This document shows positions 1 to 23,814 of a stretch of 40,825 nucleotides of DNA, one piece after another; position 1 is the first letter of the stretch; each line of letters begins with the position of its first letter. The stretch is from IMG/VR virus record IMGVR_UViG_2917398303_000002, positions 1-40,825 of that record, one strand, 5' to 3'. The notes beneath the pieces are model-generated. The model saw only the letters and a list, made by a program, of their open reading frames with translations. It was not told the DNA's origin and did no database searches. A program made the translations under genes and the position numbers. This stretch comes from a virus (lineage: Duplodnaviria; Heunggongvirae; Uroviricota; Caudoviricetes).

Positions 1-1158
1 ATGCTCACCGTTAAGCAGATTGAAGCAGCAAAGCCGAAAGAAAAACCATACCGCCTACTCGATGGTAATGGCCTGTACCTTTATGTCCCTGTATCAGGGA
101 AAAAGGTATGGCAGCTTCGCTACAAGATTGACGGTAAGGAGAAAATCCTGACTGTCGGAAAATATCCGCTTATGACTTTGCAGGAAGCAAGGGATAAGGC
201 ATGGACCGCAAGGAAAGACATCTCAGTTGGCATCGATCCGGTAAAGGCGAAAAAGGCTTCGTCTAACAACAATTCCTTTAGTGCGATTTACAAGGAATGG
301 TACGAGCACAAGAAGCAAGTCTGGTCTGTAGGTTATGCTACTGAACTTGCAAAAATGTTTGATGACGACATTTTACCTATCATCGGCGGCCTTGAAATTC
401 AGGATATTGAGCCGATGCAACTTCTTGAAGTAATCCGCAGGTTTGAAGATCGCGGTGCAATGGAGCGAGCCAACAAAGCACGCAGAAGATGCGGCGAGGT
501 TTTCCGTTACGCTATTGTCACCGGAAGGGCTAAATATAACCCAGCACCTGACCTTGCTGACGCCATGAAGGGATACCGCAAGAAGAACTTCCCGTTTCTT
601 CCTGCAGACCAGATCCCGGCATTCAACAAAGCCCTGGCAACATTTTCAGGAAGTATCGTATCGCTCATTGCCACCAAGGTTTTACGCTATACAGCCCTAA
701 GAACGAAAGAGCTTCGTTCCATGCAATGGAAGAACGTCGATTTTGAAAACAGGATTATCACCATCGACGCCAATGTGATGAAGGGACGCAAAATTCATGT
801 GGTCCCGATGTCAGACCAGGTGGTTGAACTTCTCACTACGCTAAGCTCCATCACTAAACCAGTATCAGAGTTTGTTTTTGCCGGACGCAACGATAAGAAG
901 AAGCCAATCTGCGAGAACGCGGTGCTACTTGTGATCAAGCAAATCGGCTATGAAGGTCTGGAAAGCGGTCACGGATTCAGGCATGAATTCAGCACTATTA
1001 TGAACGAGCACGAATGGCCTGCTGACGCTATTGAAGTGCAACTGGCACATGCCAACGGCGGATCTGTGCGTGGAATTTATAACCATGCTCAGTATCTCGA
1101 TAAGCGCAGAGAAATGTTGCAGTGGTGGGCGGATTGGCTTGATGAAAAGGTGGAGTGA
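1..1158 (+). CDS. intS: Tyrosine integrase, P4 family (IntS-like); the ORF begins exactly at the window edge and appears complete
   Basis: N-terminus LTVKQIEAAKP...YRLLDGNGLYLYV...VWQLRY is the arm-binding motif of P4-type integrases; C-terminal catalytic region with HxxR-type motif (GHGFRHE); position directly upstream of gtrABC as at argW in E. coli K-12. Confidence 0.9.
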   Translation: MLTVKQIEAAKPKEKPYRLLDGNGLYLYVPVSGKKVWQLRYKIDGKEKILTVGKYPLMTLQEARDKAWTARKDISVGIDPVKAKKASSNNNSFSAIYKEWYEHKKQVWSVGYATELAKMFDDDILPIIGGLEIQDIEPMQLLEVIRRFEDRGAMERANKARRRCGEVFRYAIVTGRAKYNPAPDLADAMKGYRKKNFPFLPADQIPAFNKALATFSGSIVSLIATKVLRYTALRTKELRSMQWKNVDFENRIITIDANVMKGRKIHVVPMSDQVVELLTTLSSITKPVSEFVFAGRNDKKKPICENAVLLVIKQIGYEGLESGHGFRHEFSTIMNEHEWPADAIEVQLAHANGGSVRGIYNHAQYLDKRREMLQWWADWLDEKVE

Positions 1159-1310
1159 TCCGCCTTTACTGATTTCGCAACATGTACAACCTTGCAAAGT
1201 GATGCAGACACTCTGTATCTCTCAACTCAATCTAGGAATAGGATTATTTATCGATCCTTTAGGAATTGGATGGTACACTTTGGACTTTTCTCAATTCACT
1301 GAATATAAAG

Positions 1311-1673
1311 ATGTTTAAGCTTTTCGCGAAATACACATCGATAGGTGTACTTAACACCATCATACACTGGGTTGTGTTTGCGGCGTGTATCTACGGTGCC
1401 GAGACAAGTCAGGCACTGGCAAACTTCGCAGGGTTCGTTTTGGCCGTGAGTTTCAGTTTCTTTGCAAACGCCAGATTCACGTTCAAAGCCTCTACGACAA
1501 CGACACGCTACGTGCTTTATGTTGCATTCATGGGAGCATTGAGTGCAATTGTTGGCTGGGCTGCTGACAAATGTGCCCTTCCTCCTCTCGTCACTCTTAT
1601 TACCTTCTCCGCTATCAGTCTGGTAAGCGGATTCATCTATTCCAAGTTCATTGTCTTTAGAGTTGCGAAATGA
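1311..1673 (+). CDS. gtrA: GtrA, bactoprenol-linked glucose translocase (flippase); start moved to internal Met (MFKLFAKY)
   Basis: About 120 aa, small hydrophobic protein with [17 protein letters not shown] motif typical of GtrA; 4-bp overlap (ATGA) with gtrB. Confidence 0.85.
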
Positions 1674-2584
1674 AGATATCTCTGGTCGTTCCTGTTTTCA
1701 ATGAAGAAGACGCGATACCTATTTTCTATAAAACAGTTCGTGAATTCGACGCATTGAAAAAATATGACATCGAAATCGTATTCATCAATGATGGAAGCAA
1801 AGATGCTACGGAATCTATTATCAATGCATTGGCCACATCTGATCCGTTGGTAATGCCACTATCATTCACTCGAAACTTTGGTAAAGAGCCAGCTCTGTTT
1901 GCAGGATTGGACCATGCAACAGGAGAAGCCGTTATCCCTATTGATGTAGACCTGCAGGACCCTATTGAGGTTATCCCTCATCTTATTGAGAAATGGCAGG
2001 CCGGTGCAGACATGGTGCTAGCGAAGCGTACAGATCGGTCAACAGATGGTCGATTAAAACGTAAGACTGCCGAGTGGTTTTATAAACTGCACAACAAAAT
2101 CAGCATCCCTAAGATAGAAGAAAATGTTGGTGACTTTCGCCTGATGTCCCGTGAAGTAGTAGATAACATCAAGTTGCTTCAAGAAAGAAATCTTTTTATG
2201 AAGGGGGTACTTAGTTGGGTTGGTGGAAGAACCGATGTCGTCGAATACACTCGCGCTGAACGTATAGCGGGTAACTCAAAGTTTAATGGATGGAAACTAT
2301 GGAATCTTGCACTCGAGGGGATTACAAGTTTTTCTACATTTCCTTTGCGAGTATGGACATACATTGGCCTATTAGTTGCAGGAGTTGCTTTTATTTATGG
2401 GGCATTAATGATTCTTGACAAACTAATCTACGGAAACAATGTTCCAGGTTATCCTTCTCTACTTGTATCAATACTCTTCCTTGGGGGGGTTCAACTTATT
2501 GGAATCGGAGTGCTAGGGGAATATATAGGAAGGATTTATTTAGAGTCCAAAAAAAGACCTCGTTACATTATAAAAAAAAGGTAA
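1670..2584 (+). CDS. gtrB: GtrB, bactoprenol glucosyltransferase (GT2 family)
   Basis: [13 protein letters not shown]...INDGSKD N-terminal GT2 signature, DxD-like VDLQD, C-terminal membrane anchor; position between gtrA and gtrC. Confidence 0.9.
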
Positions 2585-2590
2585 TAACTA

Positions 2591-4111
2591 ATGTTTTCAA
2601 AAGAAACGATAAATAAATTATTTTATTTTACATGCATAATTTCATGCTTGGTAACCATATTCCTTACATCTAGATTTAGCTATACATGGATCACAGATCC
2701 TGATTCAGCAAATAGCCCTATAATGTGGAAAGAGTTTTTGGCACATGGGTTTAATGCTTTCAATAACTGGAAGCCAACATTTGATAACTGGTATTTTACC
2801 GTATACCCTATAAATTTTCTTTTATTTTTCATTTTTAATGAAAATGGCTTTGTGCCTTTAATGCTTTCCAGTGCGATTTTCATAATTGCAATTTGCCTAT
2901 GTTCATCAAAGATCGCAGATATGTTATCTGGTAAAACTGCTGCTTTTGCAGCATTAATATCAATAACACTAATATCTCCAGATCTATATAGCAATTATTA
3001 TTCGCATCCTTTTTCTCATAATTCAACAAATGCATTCGGATTTGTTGTATTAGCAATATACATAATAACTCTCTCAAGCAAGAAAATAATTCCTGCCGCT
3101 TCCATTTTTATACTCTTAGTACTTTCTGGAGCTTCTGACCCTTGGATATTACCATCTTTTACACTACCTATATTGATATCTGAGGCTTACAATTCATTCA
3201 TCAATAGAAAAAGTTACAAATACTTTATCTTTCTATTGCTTGCATTTTTAACATCTTATTTGAATCTAGTTCAACACCTTTTTGATCTACCGACTGGCGA
3301 GTTCAAAATAACAACATTTGAACAGATGATATCTAATGCACAGTATGCAATAGTATTAACAGCAAAAATGATGCCATTGTGGGTAAACCCATCAGCATCT
3401 ATGTCATATTTTATTGTTTTAATATGGGTAGCCGTGTTCATAGCTGCTGCTTTAGTTTGTTTTAATAGAGGTAAAGAATTACGCATCTTTTCTATTTGCT
3501 GCGTCCTTTCAGTCCTTGGAATTTACTCTTCATCTATAATTGGAGATCAATTCCCGCATCAACGTTTTTATGTAAATGTTGCTCCCGTTGTTTTCTTGTT
3601 AACCTCTGTAGCCATAAGATTTTATAAAGCTTTCTTAATACCACTTTTCATAACTATTTGTGTTTCTGTTTATGGGTATTGTAACTCACCATTAAAATAC
3701 GAAGAAAATAAAAACCCAGTTTATGAATATATGACCTTCCTTTCCAACAATAATCTAAGTTATGGTTATGGTAGTTTTTGGTATTCTATGAATATGACAG
3801 TGAATTGGTTATCAAAAGACCAAATACATATAACACCTGTTTTCTTTAACCCTGAAACTGGTGTTGTGTATTTTCAGCCTGCAAGAATACAAACACTGTC
3901 TTCATGGCATACAAAGGAATTCATAAGCGGTAAACCAAACAGACAATTTATTGCCATAACTCAGGGACAAACCGGTGGTGATACATGTCCAAACGTTCAA
4001 ATATGTATTGATGGTGCTCAGAAGCAATTAGGAAAAGCCGATGAAATCCTATCATATAAGAACACGACATTCTTGGTGTACAACAAACCAATTGAAACAG
4101 ATATAAAGTAA
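2591..4111 (+). CDS. GtrC-type serotype-specific O-antigen glucosyltransferase (polytopic membrane protein), family not assignable
   Basis: 506 aa, many hydrophobic segments, third gene of gtr operon; conspicuously AT-rich compared with flanking genes. Confidence 0.6.
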   Translation: MFSKETINKLFYFTCIISCLVTIFLTSRFSYTWITDPDSANSPIMWKEFLAHGFNAFNNWKPTFDNWYFTVYPINFLLFFIFNENGFVPLMLSSAIFIIAICLCSSKIADMLSGKTAAFAALISITLISPDLYSNYYSHPFSHNSTNAFGFVVLAIYIITLSSKKIIPAASIFILLVLSGASDPWILPSFTLPILISEAYNSFINRKSYKYFIFLLLAFLTSYLNLVQHLFDLPTGEFKITTFEQMISNAQYAIVLTAKMMPLWVNPSASMSYFIVLIWVAVFIAAALVCFNRGKELRIFSICCVLSVLGIYSSSIIGDQFPHQRFYVNVAPVVFLLTSVAIRFYKAFLIPLFITICVSVYGYCNSPLKYEENKNPVYEYMTFLSNNNLSYGYGSFWYSMNMTVNWLSKDQIHITPVFFNPETGVVYFQPARIQTLSSWHTKEFISGKPNRQFIAITQGQTGGDTCPNVQICIDGAQKQLGKADEILSYKNTTFLVYNKPIETDIK

Positions 4112-4120
4112 TTTAATGTA

Positions 4121-4147
4121 AGAGGGGGATATTTCCCTCTCTTTTTT
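4121..4147 (+). terminator. Rho-independent terminator after gtrC (convergent with tailspike gene end)
   Basis: Hairpin AGAGGG-GGATATTT-CCCTCT followed by C TTTTTT. Confidence 0.5.
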
Positions 4148-4148
4148 A

Positions 4149-6272
4149 TTAATAATTCCCCTCAGAAAGGAAGCTGTAAACCCCGGGACCACCTGCAATA
4201 TTACATGTCCATGCCTTTGGTTGTCCTGAAGCAGGTGCGCTATTGATAACACGTTCGCCTATATCCCAGAAACCGGATGTAGGTACAGACGAAAGATAAA
4301 ATGTTGTTTTTTCAATTTGTAACGCATTTGATGGCATTCCATATACACAAAGAGACGGTGAGTTTATGAGTACATTTCCTGAACCATAATTTCTTATGCC
4401 AACATTTATAGCTGTAGCCGTTGCGTCTATATACACACCACAACTAACATAGCGCCATTTCCCATTACCAGCTAAAGGTGCTGTAGAGTCTGTTTGTCCT
4501 GCACCATTAACTATAAACATAAGTTTTGACGCTGCTCCCTGGTCATTTACCCACGCACCAAACCATACAAATTTCCCTTTTAGTTCTGGTGATTTGTTGA
4601 GGTCTATCGTTCGTCCCCAAACTCTATCTCCTGCCGTAACTAAGAATGAATAATTACCAGCATAAATGTTTTGAGTTTTTATCAATGCTCCTGTCGTTCC
4701 AGATGCCGCGTTCCAAAGCAACATATTTCGATCAAGATAGTTAGCAGTTAACTCTCTGTTCGCAATATCTATTAAATGAGCAGTATCAGGGTTTTGTGTC
4801 GCTGGATCATAACTTCCAACATACCCTATCGAATTGACCGTATTGTTAGCCAGATACAATCTATCTGTAACTTTAGACGAAAGATTATTACGGTACATTA
4901 CCAATAAATTGTTTACTTTAGATGCATCCAATAATTGATTATTTTCGATTGTCAGGTTTTTAGCATAGTTTGTGAATATAAAACCATCCTGATTAGGGAG
5001 GGAACTGGCGTAACCGATTGCAGTTTGCTGGTTTCCTCGAATCGAAACTGTATCATTAATCTTTGTTACGTCAGGTATTAATGTAAACTCATTAGCAATG
5101 AGATGAATATCGGCTTTAATGTTTATAAATTCCGGAGTACCATATGGATATCCACTTTCGCCGTTACGCTCCCAATAGTTATCATCCAAATTAAGTCCCT
5201 TAACCCCGAATGACATAAACCCGTATAACTTATTTTGCTCAATATCATTTCCGTTTACACGGACGCTCATACCGCCCTCGGCATACGCCGGAGTAAGCAA
5301 GATGCCTCCAGCACCATTACCATAAATACGGTTATTGATGATGTTAAGATTATTACATACCCCACCAATGTTAAGCGCATTTCCTGTGTTTGTTAGCAAA
5401 CGGCAGCCAATTATATCTATTGAGTAACCATTAATTAAGATAGCGTTACTTGTAGTGCCGGTTACATCTACATTTTCAATTTTGATATGGTTGGCGTTAG
5501 GAAAATTTATCCCATTAGCTGAGTAATTATTACCATCTAAGCCAAAGTCTCTAAGCTCACAGAAAGTAATTGGGTCGCTTTGCTGGGTTATGATTGGTTC
5601 GTTTGTTCCAGTAGAGAAGATTCTGGACTGATATGCGCCAGCACCTCGTATCATGGTGACAATATTTTTAATCGTTATACCAGGGTCAATAATGAACGTC
5701 CCCTCAGGGATAACAATCTCCGTTGGCAACGTAGCATCATCAATGGCTTTCTGGAATGCAGCCTTGTTTTGTGCTCCGCTGTTATCAGCCTTAAATCCAT
5801 AATCTGATAATGTTCGCACATCAACAGTCAATTTATTGGCTAAAGGGAGTGATGTTGACCCGGTGAATTGTGGATTGTGCATAACTAATGAATCACCAAG
5901 AGAGTGATTATCGCTTAGCAATTGACCTTTAAATTGGTCCGGGTCGTATTTAAGCACATTCGGAAAATAAAACTGTTGTACCCCATACGCATCGTACACA
6001 GCCATAGAATGGCCTTGCACAGTTACGAACTTCGCAATTTGTCCGTTGTATACCGGATATCCAGCGGTATTTATCACGATAGGCTGCGCAACAGGAACGT
6101 AAGATCCGTCTTCATTCTCAATATAAACCTGAATCTGGTTTTCAGGATTTACTGGGTCTTCATCTATTTTACCAATAAAGATTTTGCCATTTGATACAGT
6201 TTTAAAAGAACGAGCCATAGTGAACAATTGGCTAGGCATGCTTACCACAACATTTGCGGCGATATCTGACAT
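4149..6272 (-). CDS. Tailspike protein (P22 gp9-like N-terminal head-binding domain, divergent beta-helix receptor-binding/enzymatic domain)
   Basis: N-terminus [13 protein letters not shown]...[28 protein letters not shown]...[13 protein letters not shown] closely resembles the P22 tailspike head-binding domain; remainder rich in N/G/T repeats typical of right-handed beta-helix. Confidence 0.85.
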
Positions 6273-6390
6273 TTTGTAACTCCAGAGGAAGGATATGATT
6301 CAATTTTGATATTATTGAATACCTAAATGGTACTATTGAGTATTTATCCAGTAGGTTACGATGCCGTTCCACCCAACTGGTGAGGCATCA

Positions 6391-6654
6391 ATGATGTACA
6401 GCAAATACGACGAAGCGCAGTTTCATTTGAGACTTGCGCATGAACTCCACACCAAAATTAAGCAGCGTGCGAAGATGAATAACAGGTCACTGAACTCAGA
6501 GATAATTGCAGCGATTGAAGAATCACTGGCTAAACAAAGCACTGCATCTTTTTACAATGACGATGCTGAGCGTATTGCAGACCAACAATCCGATATGGTA
6601 AAGAAAATTGTCTTTGATACGCTCAGAGATTTATATAAAAAAGACTGCAACTAA
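6391..6654 (+). CDS. mnt: Mnt-like ribbon-helix-helix repressor (P22 immI Mnt homologue); start set at Met preceded by GGTGAGG
   Basis: C-terminal ...NDDAERIADQQSDMVKKIVFDTLRDLYKK matches P22 Mnt C-terminus as recalled; RHH N-terminal region; Shine-Dalgarno GGTGAGG 5 nt upstream of ATG at 6391. Confidence 0.75.
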   Translation: MMYSKYDEAQFHLRLAHELHTKIKQRAKMNNRSLNSEIIAAIEESLAKQSTASFYNDDAERIADQQSDMVKKIVFDTLRDLYKKDCN

Positions 6655-6671
6655 CCATCCGTGGCTTTCCG

Positions 6672-8975
6672 TTACTTCTGGTTGTCATCACTGTTCATCC
6701 AGTACATGATGCCTAGCCTTGATATGGTTTTCTTATCTGATTCTGGAAGTGAGTTGTAAAACGAGCGCCAAGCAGAAGAGCGTCTTACAGTTGTATCAAC
6801 GATGCTTTCTGGTGCTTGTTTTACTGCCAGCCTTGCTGCTTTCTGGAATTCTGGTGAGCTAATTAGCTTTTCTGCAGATTCCATTGATGCAGCGCCGCCC
6901 ATCGCCCTGATTTTGCTGGCGACTTTTGCCCCAATTTCTGACCCAGCAACAGCACCTACTGCACTGAACGGTCCTGACACAGTTGAACCAACCGCAGTGC
7001 CAATGCGTTGGGCATGGTTAGCAACAAATTCATTTGCCACAGTGACGCGATTAAACCGTTTGACGAACTCGTTTAGTCTTCCTGTGGTTATCTCGTAAGA
7101 TTTTGCGTCTTTGATAGCCTTTGCGACCTTATATACATCGTTCAGACCTGACATAGTCTCTTTTGGTAAATGTCGGGCAAGATTGCGCATCTGTCCGTTT
7201 GCTAACATGTTTTGATACCAGTCAGCAAACCCTGCAGGATTAAAATCAGCACCACGTTTTCCGTTCGAAAGCATATCCCGAAGACCTGTTCCCAGTAGCT
7301 CGGTTCTTAGCTTCCTGGACGGCGTGTTTTGCATCAATTCACGGAATCCTTTGGCATCGCCTTTCGACATTGCCTGTAGTGCTGTCGTTGCTTTGCGAGA
7401 AACATCACCGTTCAGCGTTCTGCCAGTAAGATTAATCATTTGCTCTTCCATACTTTTTCGCATCTGAACAAGCCTCTGAGCAACTTCAAAATCACGTAAT
7501 GCAATTGTCCCTGACAGCGCCGTCTTTTGATCATCGGCGAGCGAACCGTAAAGCCTCGATAAGGCAGCACGATCAGCATCTTTATATGGTCCAGAATTCT
7601 TATGAAGTGCATCACCAACAAGTCGTCGTTGCTTATTGAGATTTGCATAAGTTAATGCGCCGTTCTTGCCTGGATTAACTGCCTGAAAGACTCTCTTTTC
7701 AATAGGGTCAAGGTTTTTCATCCCGCCAAGATCTTCTGCCACCTGTTTGAGCATTGACCTTGTTGATGGCGCATCAATTTTTGCACCTGCAGGCATCGCC
7801 TTTTCAACATTGCGATAAAGCTGGTCGCTTCGTTTCATCAGGGCAGACATTCTTCCATTGACCGTATCAATAAACTTGTCGCTCATACCAAGAGCATCTT
7901 TTGCACCGGAAGCGCGATCAATTATCTTCCCCGCGCTCTGTGCTAGCTGCCTGATTGCTTCATTTTCCTGCACCTGTAGAGCAGAACCCGCACGGGACTT
8001 GATTGCTTGCTCAACAGCCTTGTATTGCTCGTTCCCGGAAAAGTGTGAAGGGAGTAATGAATCAACATTAAGCTTTTCAGCAGACTCCAGAACTTCAGCC
8101 TGAGGATTGATATCTAATTCATCAAGCGATGAAGCGAGATTTGGCCTTTTTTGTGCAGCAACTGTGCGAACGACTTCCTCTGGGTTGCTCGTCGCAGGCG
8201 TCATTGGTACACCTTGTGCTACTCTTGCCTCTGCGGCATGAACCGCAGGATTTGTTGCTGCAGCGGCATCACCGGAGAATGGTGATGTTTCTGTTGGCGC
8301 AGGGGTCGCTCTCTGTGTAGATGTTTTATTACCACTAATTATACTTGATGCGCCACGAACACCACGGGTAACGCCATTTATCAGGCCATGCGTAGCAATG
8401 TTAAGTCCGGCATTAATAGCGGTATTTTTGGCAAAATCCCCCTGTTGATTCGCCGCGTCCGCGAGAGAACCAATGACCATGTTTCCAGCTACACCTGCTC
8501 CAGGAACAAGATAACCGCCTATTGACTCTCCAGCTTGCGCATACGGATCCGTTGGCCGGTTAACTGGTCTATATACTTCATCAAGAATCTTTGGTCCATC
8601 AAAACTCTGAGATGCAGCATTAATGAGACTCGCCCCCCCCTGAAGAACGTCAAAAGGAATATTTACAAATCCTCTTACAGCCTGCTCGGCAATTTGCCCT
8701 ACGCTTTGCCCACCAGTTAGCCATTCTCCTGCACGCTGCATAAGTGATTTGTCTTGCTGAATGGCATCAGGAGATTGCCTTACTTCCTGCTGTTCTGTCT
8801 GCACAGATGGCAATGGATAGGCAGCATAGAAAGCTTGCTTAGCCTGCTCTGCATTTTCTCCGGCTTGCGGGGCCACGACTTCATTGAAGTATTGCTCCTG
8901 AGCCTGCGCTTTTTGTTCTGGTGCTAACGCCTGATACTGTGGAGAGGCGATAACATCTTTCCATGCTTTAGCCAT
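6672..8975 (-). CDS. Ejection (injection) protein, P22 gp16-like, extended version
   Basis: Position as last of three ejection protein genes before mnt/tailspike; Ala/Gly/Gln-rich low-complexity composition typical of gp16; 767 aa. Confidence 0.65.
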
Positions 8976-23658: not shown

Positions 23659-23734
23659 TGGTGCTGGTTAACGGACTTGAACCGCTACCCATTCGCTTAC
23701 AAGGCGACTGCTCTACCATTGGAGCTAAACCAGT
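23659..23734 (-). tRNA. tRNA-like gene, predicted anticodon UGU (Thr)
   Basis: Hand-folded cloverleaf: D stem GCTC/GAGC, anticodon loop CTTGTAA, T arm AGCGG-TTCAAGT-CCGTT, 3' ...AACCAGC-A-CCA; position 1-72 mismatch. Confidence 0.55.
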
Positions 23735-23739
23735 ATATT

Positions 23740-23814
23740 TGGCGGGACAGCGTGGACTCGAACCACGATAAGAAGGTTAACAGCCTTCCGTAATGACCTT
23801 TATACGACTGACCC
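23740..23814 (-). tRNA. tRNA-like gene, predicted anticodon GUU (Asn)
   Basis: Hand-folded cloverleaf: anticodon stem GAAGG/CCTTC with loop CTGTTAA, T arm CGTGG-TTCGAGT-CCACG, 3' CTGTCCC-G-CCA; one acceptor mismatch, short D stem. Confidence 0.55.

Follow-up and report, generated by a model that had tools for sequence, protein, structure and literature searches.

The gtrABC cassette and its prophage

The window discussed here (the whole stretch of DNA analysed, 40,825 bp, from the tailed-phage record IMGVR_UViG_2917398303_000002) carries close to its left end three genes, gtrA, gtrB and gtrC, that lie between an integrase gene and a convergently transcribed tailspike gene, in the order int-gtrA-gtrB-gtrC-tailspike already read by a first-pass annotation of the same DNA (Table 1). 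We consider it very probable that these genes are a functional lysogenic-conversion operon of a P22-like prophage located at argW in Escherichia sp. E4694. The interval at issue, 1159-4148, extends exactly from the stop codon of int to that of the tailspike gene, and takes in 152 bp of intergenic DNA upstream of gtrA and a 37-bp gap containing a terminator. The three genes form one operon, with gtrA and gtrB overlapping by 4 nt and only 6 nt separating gtrB from gtrC. A start for gtrA at TTG 1266, as given by a mechanical list of open reading frames (ORFs), was rejected in favour of ATG 1311, which is backed both by the NCBI gene call in the source contig and by alignment with GtrA of the Shigella phage SfI.

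The first two genes are readily assigned. GtrA is 83% identical to its SfI counterpart over 120/120 amino acids and matches PF04138 (E=5e-14) and PHROG 2224, 'GtrA-like O-antigen conversion' (E=1e-63), so that it can be assigned as a small membrane protein and predicted flippase for undecaprenyl-phosphate-linked glucose (Und-P-glucose). GtrB, 88% identical to SfI GtrB, matches PF00535 (E=3e-31) and the GtrB families PHROG 841/34335, 'O-antigen conversion' (E=1e-163 to 1e-177), and is assigned as a predicted GT2 bactoprenol (undecaprenyl-phosphate) glucosyltransferase; its best NCBIfam matches, PgfS and ArnC, both fall under the family cut-offs. Thus, as is usual for a gtrABC cassette, a GtrA gene in first place is tightly coupled to a GT2 GtrB gene in second place, and a variable polytopic membrane glycosyltransferase is encoded directly 3' of gtrB.

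The genomic setting was established from five window proteins that match exactly one 287-kb contig of Escherichia sp. E4694 (GCA_004745285.1), in which the gene order is fadL-like, mlaA, yfdC-like, tRNA-Arg(CCT), int, gtrA, gtrB, gtrC, tailspike. The tRNA gene lies 160 bp upstream of int (locus L004), the integrase is named IntS by NCBI, and the first letters of the window are the ATG of int. From this gene order, the window is a prophage at the tRNA gene argW. Over the remaining DNA, large parts of P22-like coliphages, APC_JM3.2 and IME10 among them, match at 95-97% identity, making this a P22-like (Lederbergvirus-type) prophage with its attachment site upstream of int; the gtr genes are therefore carried, as such cassettes typically are, near int and the attachment site and beside the gene for the tail receptor-binding protein. 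The same locus (mlaA-yfdC-argW) and the same order (int-gtrA-gtrB-gtrC) are found in the CPS-53/KplE1 prophage remnant of E. coli K-12, which reads intS-yfdG-yfdH-yfdI at argW, and the genes that other E. coli genomes carry under the names yfdG and yfdH show 77-79% DNA identity to the window's gtrAB. The window differs from the K-12 remnant in that its prophage, which measures about 40.8 kb and has virion genes, appears to be complete, and in that its type-specific gene is of the GtrI family.

In the argW group of phages (Sf6, HK620, KplE1, Kapi1), attP lies between int and xis, so that after integration one gene is found at each end of the prophage (PMC8787464). This explains why int and the cassette remain adjacent in the prophage, why 1159-1310 contains no tRNA fragment, and why a small ORF, placed where xis is found in argW-group phages, closes the window with its stop codon. 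The arrangement of SfI and P22, with attP between int and gtrA, was considered and rejected: no tRNA-like sequence was found at 1159-1310, which gave only one weak E. coli match, and argW lies upstream of int. The first-pass description of the interval between int and the convergent tailspike gene as a classic slot for lysogenic conversion is borne out by the gene order, int-gtrABC-tailspike. Unlike in the Shigella gtr phages, the attachment site does not lie between int and gtrA (PMC8787464).

Table 1. Features of the gtr region and of other parts of the window, with overall (GC) and third-codon-position (GC3) G+C content
Feature	Position	Strand	GC (%)	GC3 (%)	Description
int	1-1158	+	47.3	51.6	Tyrosine integrase (IntS type), leftmost in the prophage; Pfam Arm-DNA-bind_3, Phage_int_M, Phage_integrase
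Intergenic region upstream of gtrA	1159-1310	+			152 bp; presumed gtr promoter region
gtrA	1311-1673	+	46.6	51.2	120 amino acids, ATG start; Pfam PF04138 GtrA_DPMS_TM
gtrB	1670-2584	+	40.7	35.1	304 amino acids; Pfam PF00535 Glycos_transf_2
gtrC	2591-4111	+	32.5	26.2	506 amino acids; assigned to the GtrI family of type-specific O-antigen glucosyltransferases (GT-C fold)
Intrinsic terminator of the gtr operon	4120-4150 (hairpin 4120-4143)	+			From terminator scan and RNA fold
Tailspike gene	4149-6272	-	39.7	32.9	707 amino acids; Pfam Head_binding PF09008 (E=5e-64) and Beta_helix PF13229; converges on gtrC
Mnt-type repressor gene	6361-6654				Arc and Repressor_Mnt domains
tRNA-Thr(TGT), tRNA-Asn(GTT)	23659-23814	-			Two adjacent phage-borne genes; ARAGORN and Rfam
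Whole window	1-40,825		46.3

GtrC as an intact member of the GtrI family

The third gene is the one that gives a gtr cassette its specificity, and here the first-pass reading of a gtrABC cassette with a 506-amino-acid gtrC product holds, by Pfam for gtrA and gtrB and by comparison with SfI for all three. GtrC is 39% identical to SfI GtrI over residues 32-502 (E=1e-107), and both proteins have 506 residues. When GtrC was compared by tblastn with 50,697 phage records, the only matches were SfI gtrI and a shortened copy in Escherichia phage N7; the candidate relationships to the GtrII, IV, V, X, P22 and epsilon34 types were rejected on the same result. Among PHROGs, GtrC was only weakly matched, by a family whose function is not known. 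Among 5.8 billion proteins, 45 homologues were found; they come from Enterobacterales and nearly all have 495-526 amino acids, one of them bearing the UniRef label 'GtrI family protein'.

In an alignment of 39 sequences, the window's GtrC keeps all 44 invariant positions, including D38, T63-x-D65-N-W-Y-F-T-x-Y-P73, H139-P-F-S-H143 and D183-P-W185 (S182 is nearly invariant), and it aligns end to end with homologues of 506-508 amino acids. The first-pass annotation had conceded that inactivating lesions in gtrC would undo its proposal; there is no frameshift, truncation or lost conserved residue, and with every conserved residue kept at full length that objection does not apply. The gene is also widespread: 51 database sequences, almost all of full length and spread across well over 100 contigs, match it at 98% identity or more; they come from dozens of draft assemblies of E. 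coli and cryptic-clade Escherichia, and the protein is everywhere labelled 'hypothetical protein'. No intact copy was found in 5,426 complete E. coli genomes, where DNA matching revealed only two deletion remnants.

A search of solved structures with the GtrC sequence gave nothing meaningful (best E=0.33); only the comparison of folds was informative. The protein was modelled confidently as a membrane glycosyltransferase of the GT-C fold, with about 14 helices up to residue 365 followed by an alpha/beta domain (369-506). This predicted arrangement agrees with the topology reported for GtrI, GtrII and GtrV, in which a multi-helix membrane domain is followed by a large periplasmic C-terminal domain (PMC3259042). 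In the predicted structure, D38 and D65 are in the segment joining the first two membrane helices and D183 is at the end of a later helix, making these three residues candidates for catalysis or donor binding. The predicted fold fits the accepted Gtr mechanism (PMC2629481, PMC3259042).

Might GtrC nevertheless act on something other than O-antigen, such as enterobacterial common antigen, capsule or a periplasmic protein, or might the sugar be other than glucose? The GT-C fold is common to enzymes whose acceptors differ widely, for example lipid A (ArnT), proteins (PglB, Pmt) and arabinan (AftB), and GtrB-like GT2 enzymes of other bacteria, among them the sub-threshold NCBIfam matches PgfS and ArnC mentioned above, load other sugars. 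Set against this, GtrB very closely resembles the bactoprenol glucosyltransferase of SfI, the enzyme to which GtrC is homologous over its full length has been proven to use O-antigen as acceptor (PMC3636060), and gtrC adjoins, and co-occurs with, a gene for a beta-helix tailspike of the O-antigen type, leaving such alternatives very unlikely. The most likely role of the cassette, by analogy with the characterised systems, is the addition of glucose to the O-antigen of the host surface, and the cassette shows every feature of a gtrABC system and of the GtrI family that can be checked in sequence.

A characterised counterpart is gtrA-gtrB-gtrI of SfI, which gives rise to the type I antigen by attaching alpha-1,4-linked glucose to GlcNAc in the O-unit (PMC3636060). 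The two systems share the three-gene order, the gene sizes (120, 304-306 and 506 amino acids), a gradient of G+C content ending in an AT-rich type gene, and convergence of the cassette on a tail gene. They differ in that SfI, a lambdoid myovirus, integrates at thrW and has its attP between int and gtrA (PMC3636060), whereas the window is a P22-like phage at argW with its attachment site upstream of int, in a different Escherichia lineage. At 39% identity, the acceptor and linkage of GtrC may differ from those of GtrI; the first-pass caveat that the linkage cannot be read from sequence stands, since this level of identity fixes neither. Among P22 and P22-like phages (e.g. epsilon34), the window shares the virion type, the slot beside the convergent tailspike gene, and the presumed role, O-antigen glucosylation lowering re-adsorption (PMC2629481); gtrABC is also listed among the superinfection-interference systems of P22 (bioRxiv 10.1101/2023.08.15.553423). 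It differs from that group in that GtrC has no detectable similarity to P22-group GtrC proteins in the tblastn search.

Base composition and the gtrC-tailspike association

Windowed calculation bears out the first-pass remark that gtrC is more AT-rich than the genes flanking it. It is the lowest-GC 1521-bp stretch of the 40.8-kb window, 4.4 standard deviations below the non-overlapping windows as a whole (minimum 38.9%). The low GC3 of gtrC (Table 1) indicates a bias at the nucleotide level, and not merely an effect of encoding a hydrophobic protein. In SfI, the gradient is closely similar (gtrA 43.0%, gtrB 42.0%, gtrI 33.4%), and it follows that the AT-richness of gtrC is an old trait of its family, with no sign of recent capture. 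The composition points to an origin of the gtr(type) gene family that was foreign, but old.

This bears on the idea that gtrC was acquired separately. A separate and recent gain by this phage, onto resident gtrAB genes, would account for the sharp break in composition near position 2520 (64 bp short of the gtrB end), where GC falls from 43.3% on the left to 32.2% on the right, and for the spread of protein identities across 50 loci encoding GtrC relatives, which were gathered by contig look-ups and by scans of GTDB genomes and IMG/VR, each being scored against the window's proteins. Wherever present in these loci, GtrB is 73-93% identical to that of the window, while GtrC ranges from 31 to 100%, which does imply that gtrC has been swapped independently of gtrAB at some time in the history of the family. 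But a gtrI gene whose product is only 39% identical has the same low GC and the same gradient from gtrA through gtrB to the type gene, as expected of an ancestral feature; the window and a locus whose GtrC is annotated from Citrobacter sedlakii (L005) align as a single colinear block (1271-5813, 79% nucleotide identity) reaching from upstream of gtrA to within the tailspike gene; and gtrABC and the tailspike receptor-binding domain move together among the nearest relatives. A recent separate gain in this phage therefore seems unlikely. Of the original suggestion, the AT-richness is real, whereas the shared segment runs from gtrA to the tailspike gene and does not consist of gtrC alone.

The tailspike has the two-part architecture of its P22-like counterparts, an N-terminal head-binding domain and a C-terminal beta-helix domain. 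The head-binding part (residues 1 to about 120; 5913-6272) is 84-90% identical to those of other P22-like phages. The receptor-binding part (residues 121-707; 4149-5912) is divergent, as the first-pass annotation had noted: among the 50,697 phage records its only full-length match is in N7, at 56%, and a few other phages weakly match its first portion. An attempt to deduce the target O-serogroup from the tailspike failed, as no characterised tailspike matches the receptor-binding domain over its full length, and a paper on links between E. coli tailspikes and serogroups (PMC10408124) makes no mention of N7.

Across the 50 loci, this type of receptor-binding domain was seen only beside the closest relatives of gtrC. 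In Escherichia sp. E1V33 (L015), GtrC is 100% and the tailspike domain 99% identical to those of the window; the corresponding values are 99 and 88% in L035, 88 and 82% in the C. sedlakii-type loci L005/L006, and 70 and 49% in L012. Loci in which GtrC is at most 66% identical, including two with P22-type head-binding domains (L011 and L050), have no homologue of the window's tailspike domain. Between the receptor-binding domain and this type of gtrC there is thus a physical link, and probably a functional one too. The L005 tailspike has a different, non-P22 N-terminal anchor (PF18668), and its neighbours are unlike those of the window; since the alignment is colinear despite this other anchor, what travels as a unit among the nearest relatives is gtrABC together with the tailspike receptor-binding domain.

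One could go further and suppose that the gtrC type and the tailspike domain make up a single mobile module of about 4.5 kb for recognizing and then masking a surface polysaccharide, which moves between unrelated virion types while its parts co-diverge to fit the same O-antigen, a mismatched gtr region decaying after a domain swap, as in N7. We regard this as conceivable but somewhat doubtful. Were it so, one could predict from the tailspike domain which polysaccharide an uncharacterized GtrC enzyme uses as acceptor, and vice versa. In N7 and in E. coli FDN-24 and FDN-9 from chickens, the cassette is represented by a deletion derivative in which about 25 codons of a gtrA are fused to the last 225 or so codons of this gtrC (4813-5702 of the N7 locus, L001, and 4939-5702 of the FDN-24 locus, L003; both matching 3447-4268 of the window at 97-98% nucleotide identity). 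At 97%, the identity extends past the terminator into the tailspike gene and covers its last 120 nt; beyond these lies the divergent N7 receptor-binding domain described above. That the gtr genes of the N7 type decayed after an exchange of tailspike domains is speculation.

Several observations on more distant loci may be added. In L012, a metagenomic P22-like locus, a gene for an acyltransferase-3 protein (353 amino acids; 5729-6790) is inserted between gtrC and the tailspike gene, which suggests a double cassette for glucosylation and O-acetylation of O-antigen. GtrI-family genes at 32-34% identity occur in Erwiniaceae, Rahnella and Rouxiella (L017, L021, L024 and L027-L031), with no gtrA or gtrB detected in the fetched flanks of up to 5 kb per side; these may be orphan chromosomal copies using gtrAB located elsewhere in the genome. 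A 349-amino-acid protein (P0013) from a 1352-bp Logan contig is 99% identical to about half of GtrC and has a precomputed Pfam match to Phage_P22_gp16, and its contig is probably chimeric or misassembled. In the window itself, the Mnt-type gene lies between the tailspike gene and the gene for a gp16-like ejection protein, without an accompanying arc or ant (N7 has arc and ant there), and looks like an orphan immI repressor. An Rfam scan of the whole window detected nothing beyond the two phage tRNAs.

Expression, proposed function and significance

How might the operon be expressed? An extended -10-like sequence, TGgTACACT, is present at 1271-1279, with a GATC (1253-1256) lying within the sequence TATCGATC at the position expected for a -35 element. 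The motif TGnTA(C/G/A)ACT and TATCGATC both recur upstream of gtrA in other loci, including SfI and L008/L010, each in most, though not all, of six aligned loci. The operon therefore probably starts at an extended -10 promoter near 1271-1279, judging from the sequence; a generic scan made no call there, so this promoter is one that we infer. Transcription probably ends at the hairpin at 4120-4143: in the gap between the convergent stop codons, a G+C-rich hairpin of 10 bp is followed by a run of T residues (-17.5 kcal/mol, z = -3.4, with none of 200 shuffled sequences as stable).

In P22, gtr is phase-variable and makes use of four GATC sites, grouped as two pairs with a 13-nt spacing, together with three OxyR half-sites that overlap them and match at 9-10 of 10 positions (PMC2909390). 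We looked for such an arrangement upstream of the window's gtrA and found just two GATC sites, at 1157 and 1253 (a distance of 96 nt), and a best OxyR half-site of 7/10. With GATC unpaired and the OxyR matches poor, a P22-type Dam/OxyR switch is absent, and the cassette falls outside the phase-variable subclass typified by P22. The lone Dam site over the -35 region could still influence expression. A CII-type activator site, TTGCN6TTGY, as proposed upstream of gtrA in epsilon34, was also not found upstream of gtrA here.

By homology with the Shigella and Salmonella systems, GtrB would transfer glucose from UDP-glucose to undecaprenyl phosphate on the membrane's cytoplasmic face, GtrA would flip the resulting Und-P-glucose to the periplasmic face, and GtrC, as the type-specific enzyme, would pass the glucose to O-antigen in the periplasm (PMC2629481, PMC3259042). 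The serotype would thereby be altered, with the likely consequence that the phage's own tailspike and those of similar phages bind or cleave the O-antigen less well, which would amount to exclusion at the adsorption step. The first-pass proposal that the prophage recognizes and then modifies one and the same O-antigen gains correlative support from the co-occurrence of gtrC type and tailspike domain, and is otherwise argued, like superinfection exclusion itself, by analogy with P22 and the Shigella phages.

Several points weigh against a functional conversion operon of this kind. The closest experimentally characterized relative of GtrC is a rather remote one, at 39% identity, and GtrC matches no Pfam or NCBIfam family. 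Expression is assumed, and a generic sigma-70 promoter scan found no plus-strand site upstream of gtrA. In N7, the gtrC remnant is 96% identical to this gtrC and yet stands beside a tailspike domain that is only 56% identical, so the coupling between gtrC and tailspike is not strict. The co-occurrence of gtrC type and tailspike domain equals what would be expected from physical adjacency alone.

The failure of the scan to find a consensus promoter, and the decay of related cassettes to remnants in N7, FDN-24 and FDN-9, would also suit an intact cassette that is a silent or irrelevant passenger, leaving the lipopolysaccharide unchanged either because it is untranscribed in the prophage or because the host O-antigen offers no acceptor. 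Such a passenger would not be expected to retain three full-length ORFs with every invariant residue, nor to be represented by so many nearly identical and nearly all full-length copies of gtrC; the extended -10-like motif before gtrA is conserved in several distant loci; and the fact that this prophage encodes such a tailspike implies a host O-antigen identical to that on which the tailspike domain of this gtrC-tailspike pair was selected. We therefore think a silent passenger improbable, and return to a functional cassette that would glucosylate O-antigen.

Much of this is familiar. The gtrABC cassette, its mobility across phage types and its AT-rich, highly variable third gene have already been described, as have its position beside the tail receptor-binding gene and its role in serotype conversion and lowered re-adsorption (PMC2629481, PMC3259042, PMC3636060). 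No new mechanism is opened up by the present case, since cassette, slot, mobility and AT-rich specificity gene are all known from Shigella and Salmonella phages, and its practical value is modest. The novelty is confined to this member of the GtrI family, the tight tie to one type of tailspike domain being a further modest observation. A protein labelled 'hypothetical' and lying outside Pfam and NCBIfam can now be assigned as a GtrI-family O-antigen glucosyltransferase with a GT-C fold, and it can be predicted that prophages bring about serotype conversion in cryptic-clade Escherichia as well as in some E. coli. The linkage of gtrC to the tailspike offers a route to guessing which O-antigen is modified, and is relevant to serotyping from genome sequences and to the prediction of phage host range.

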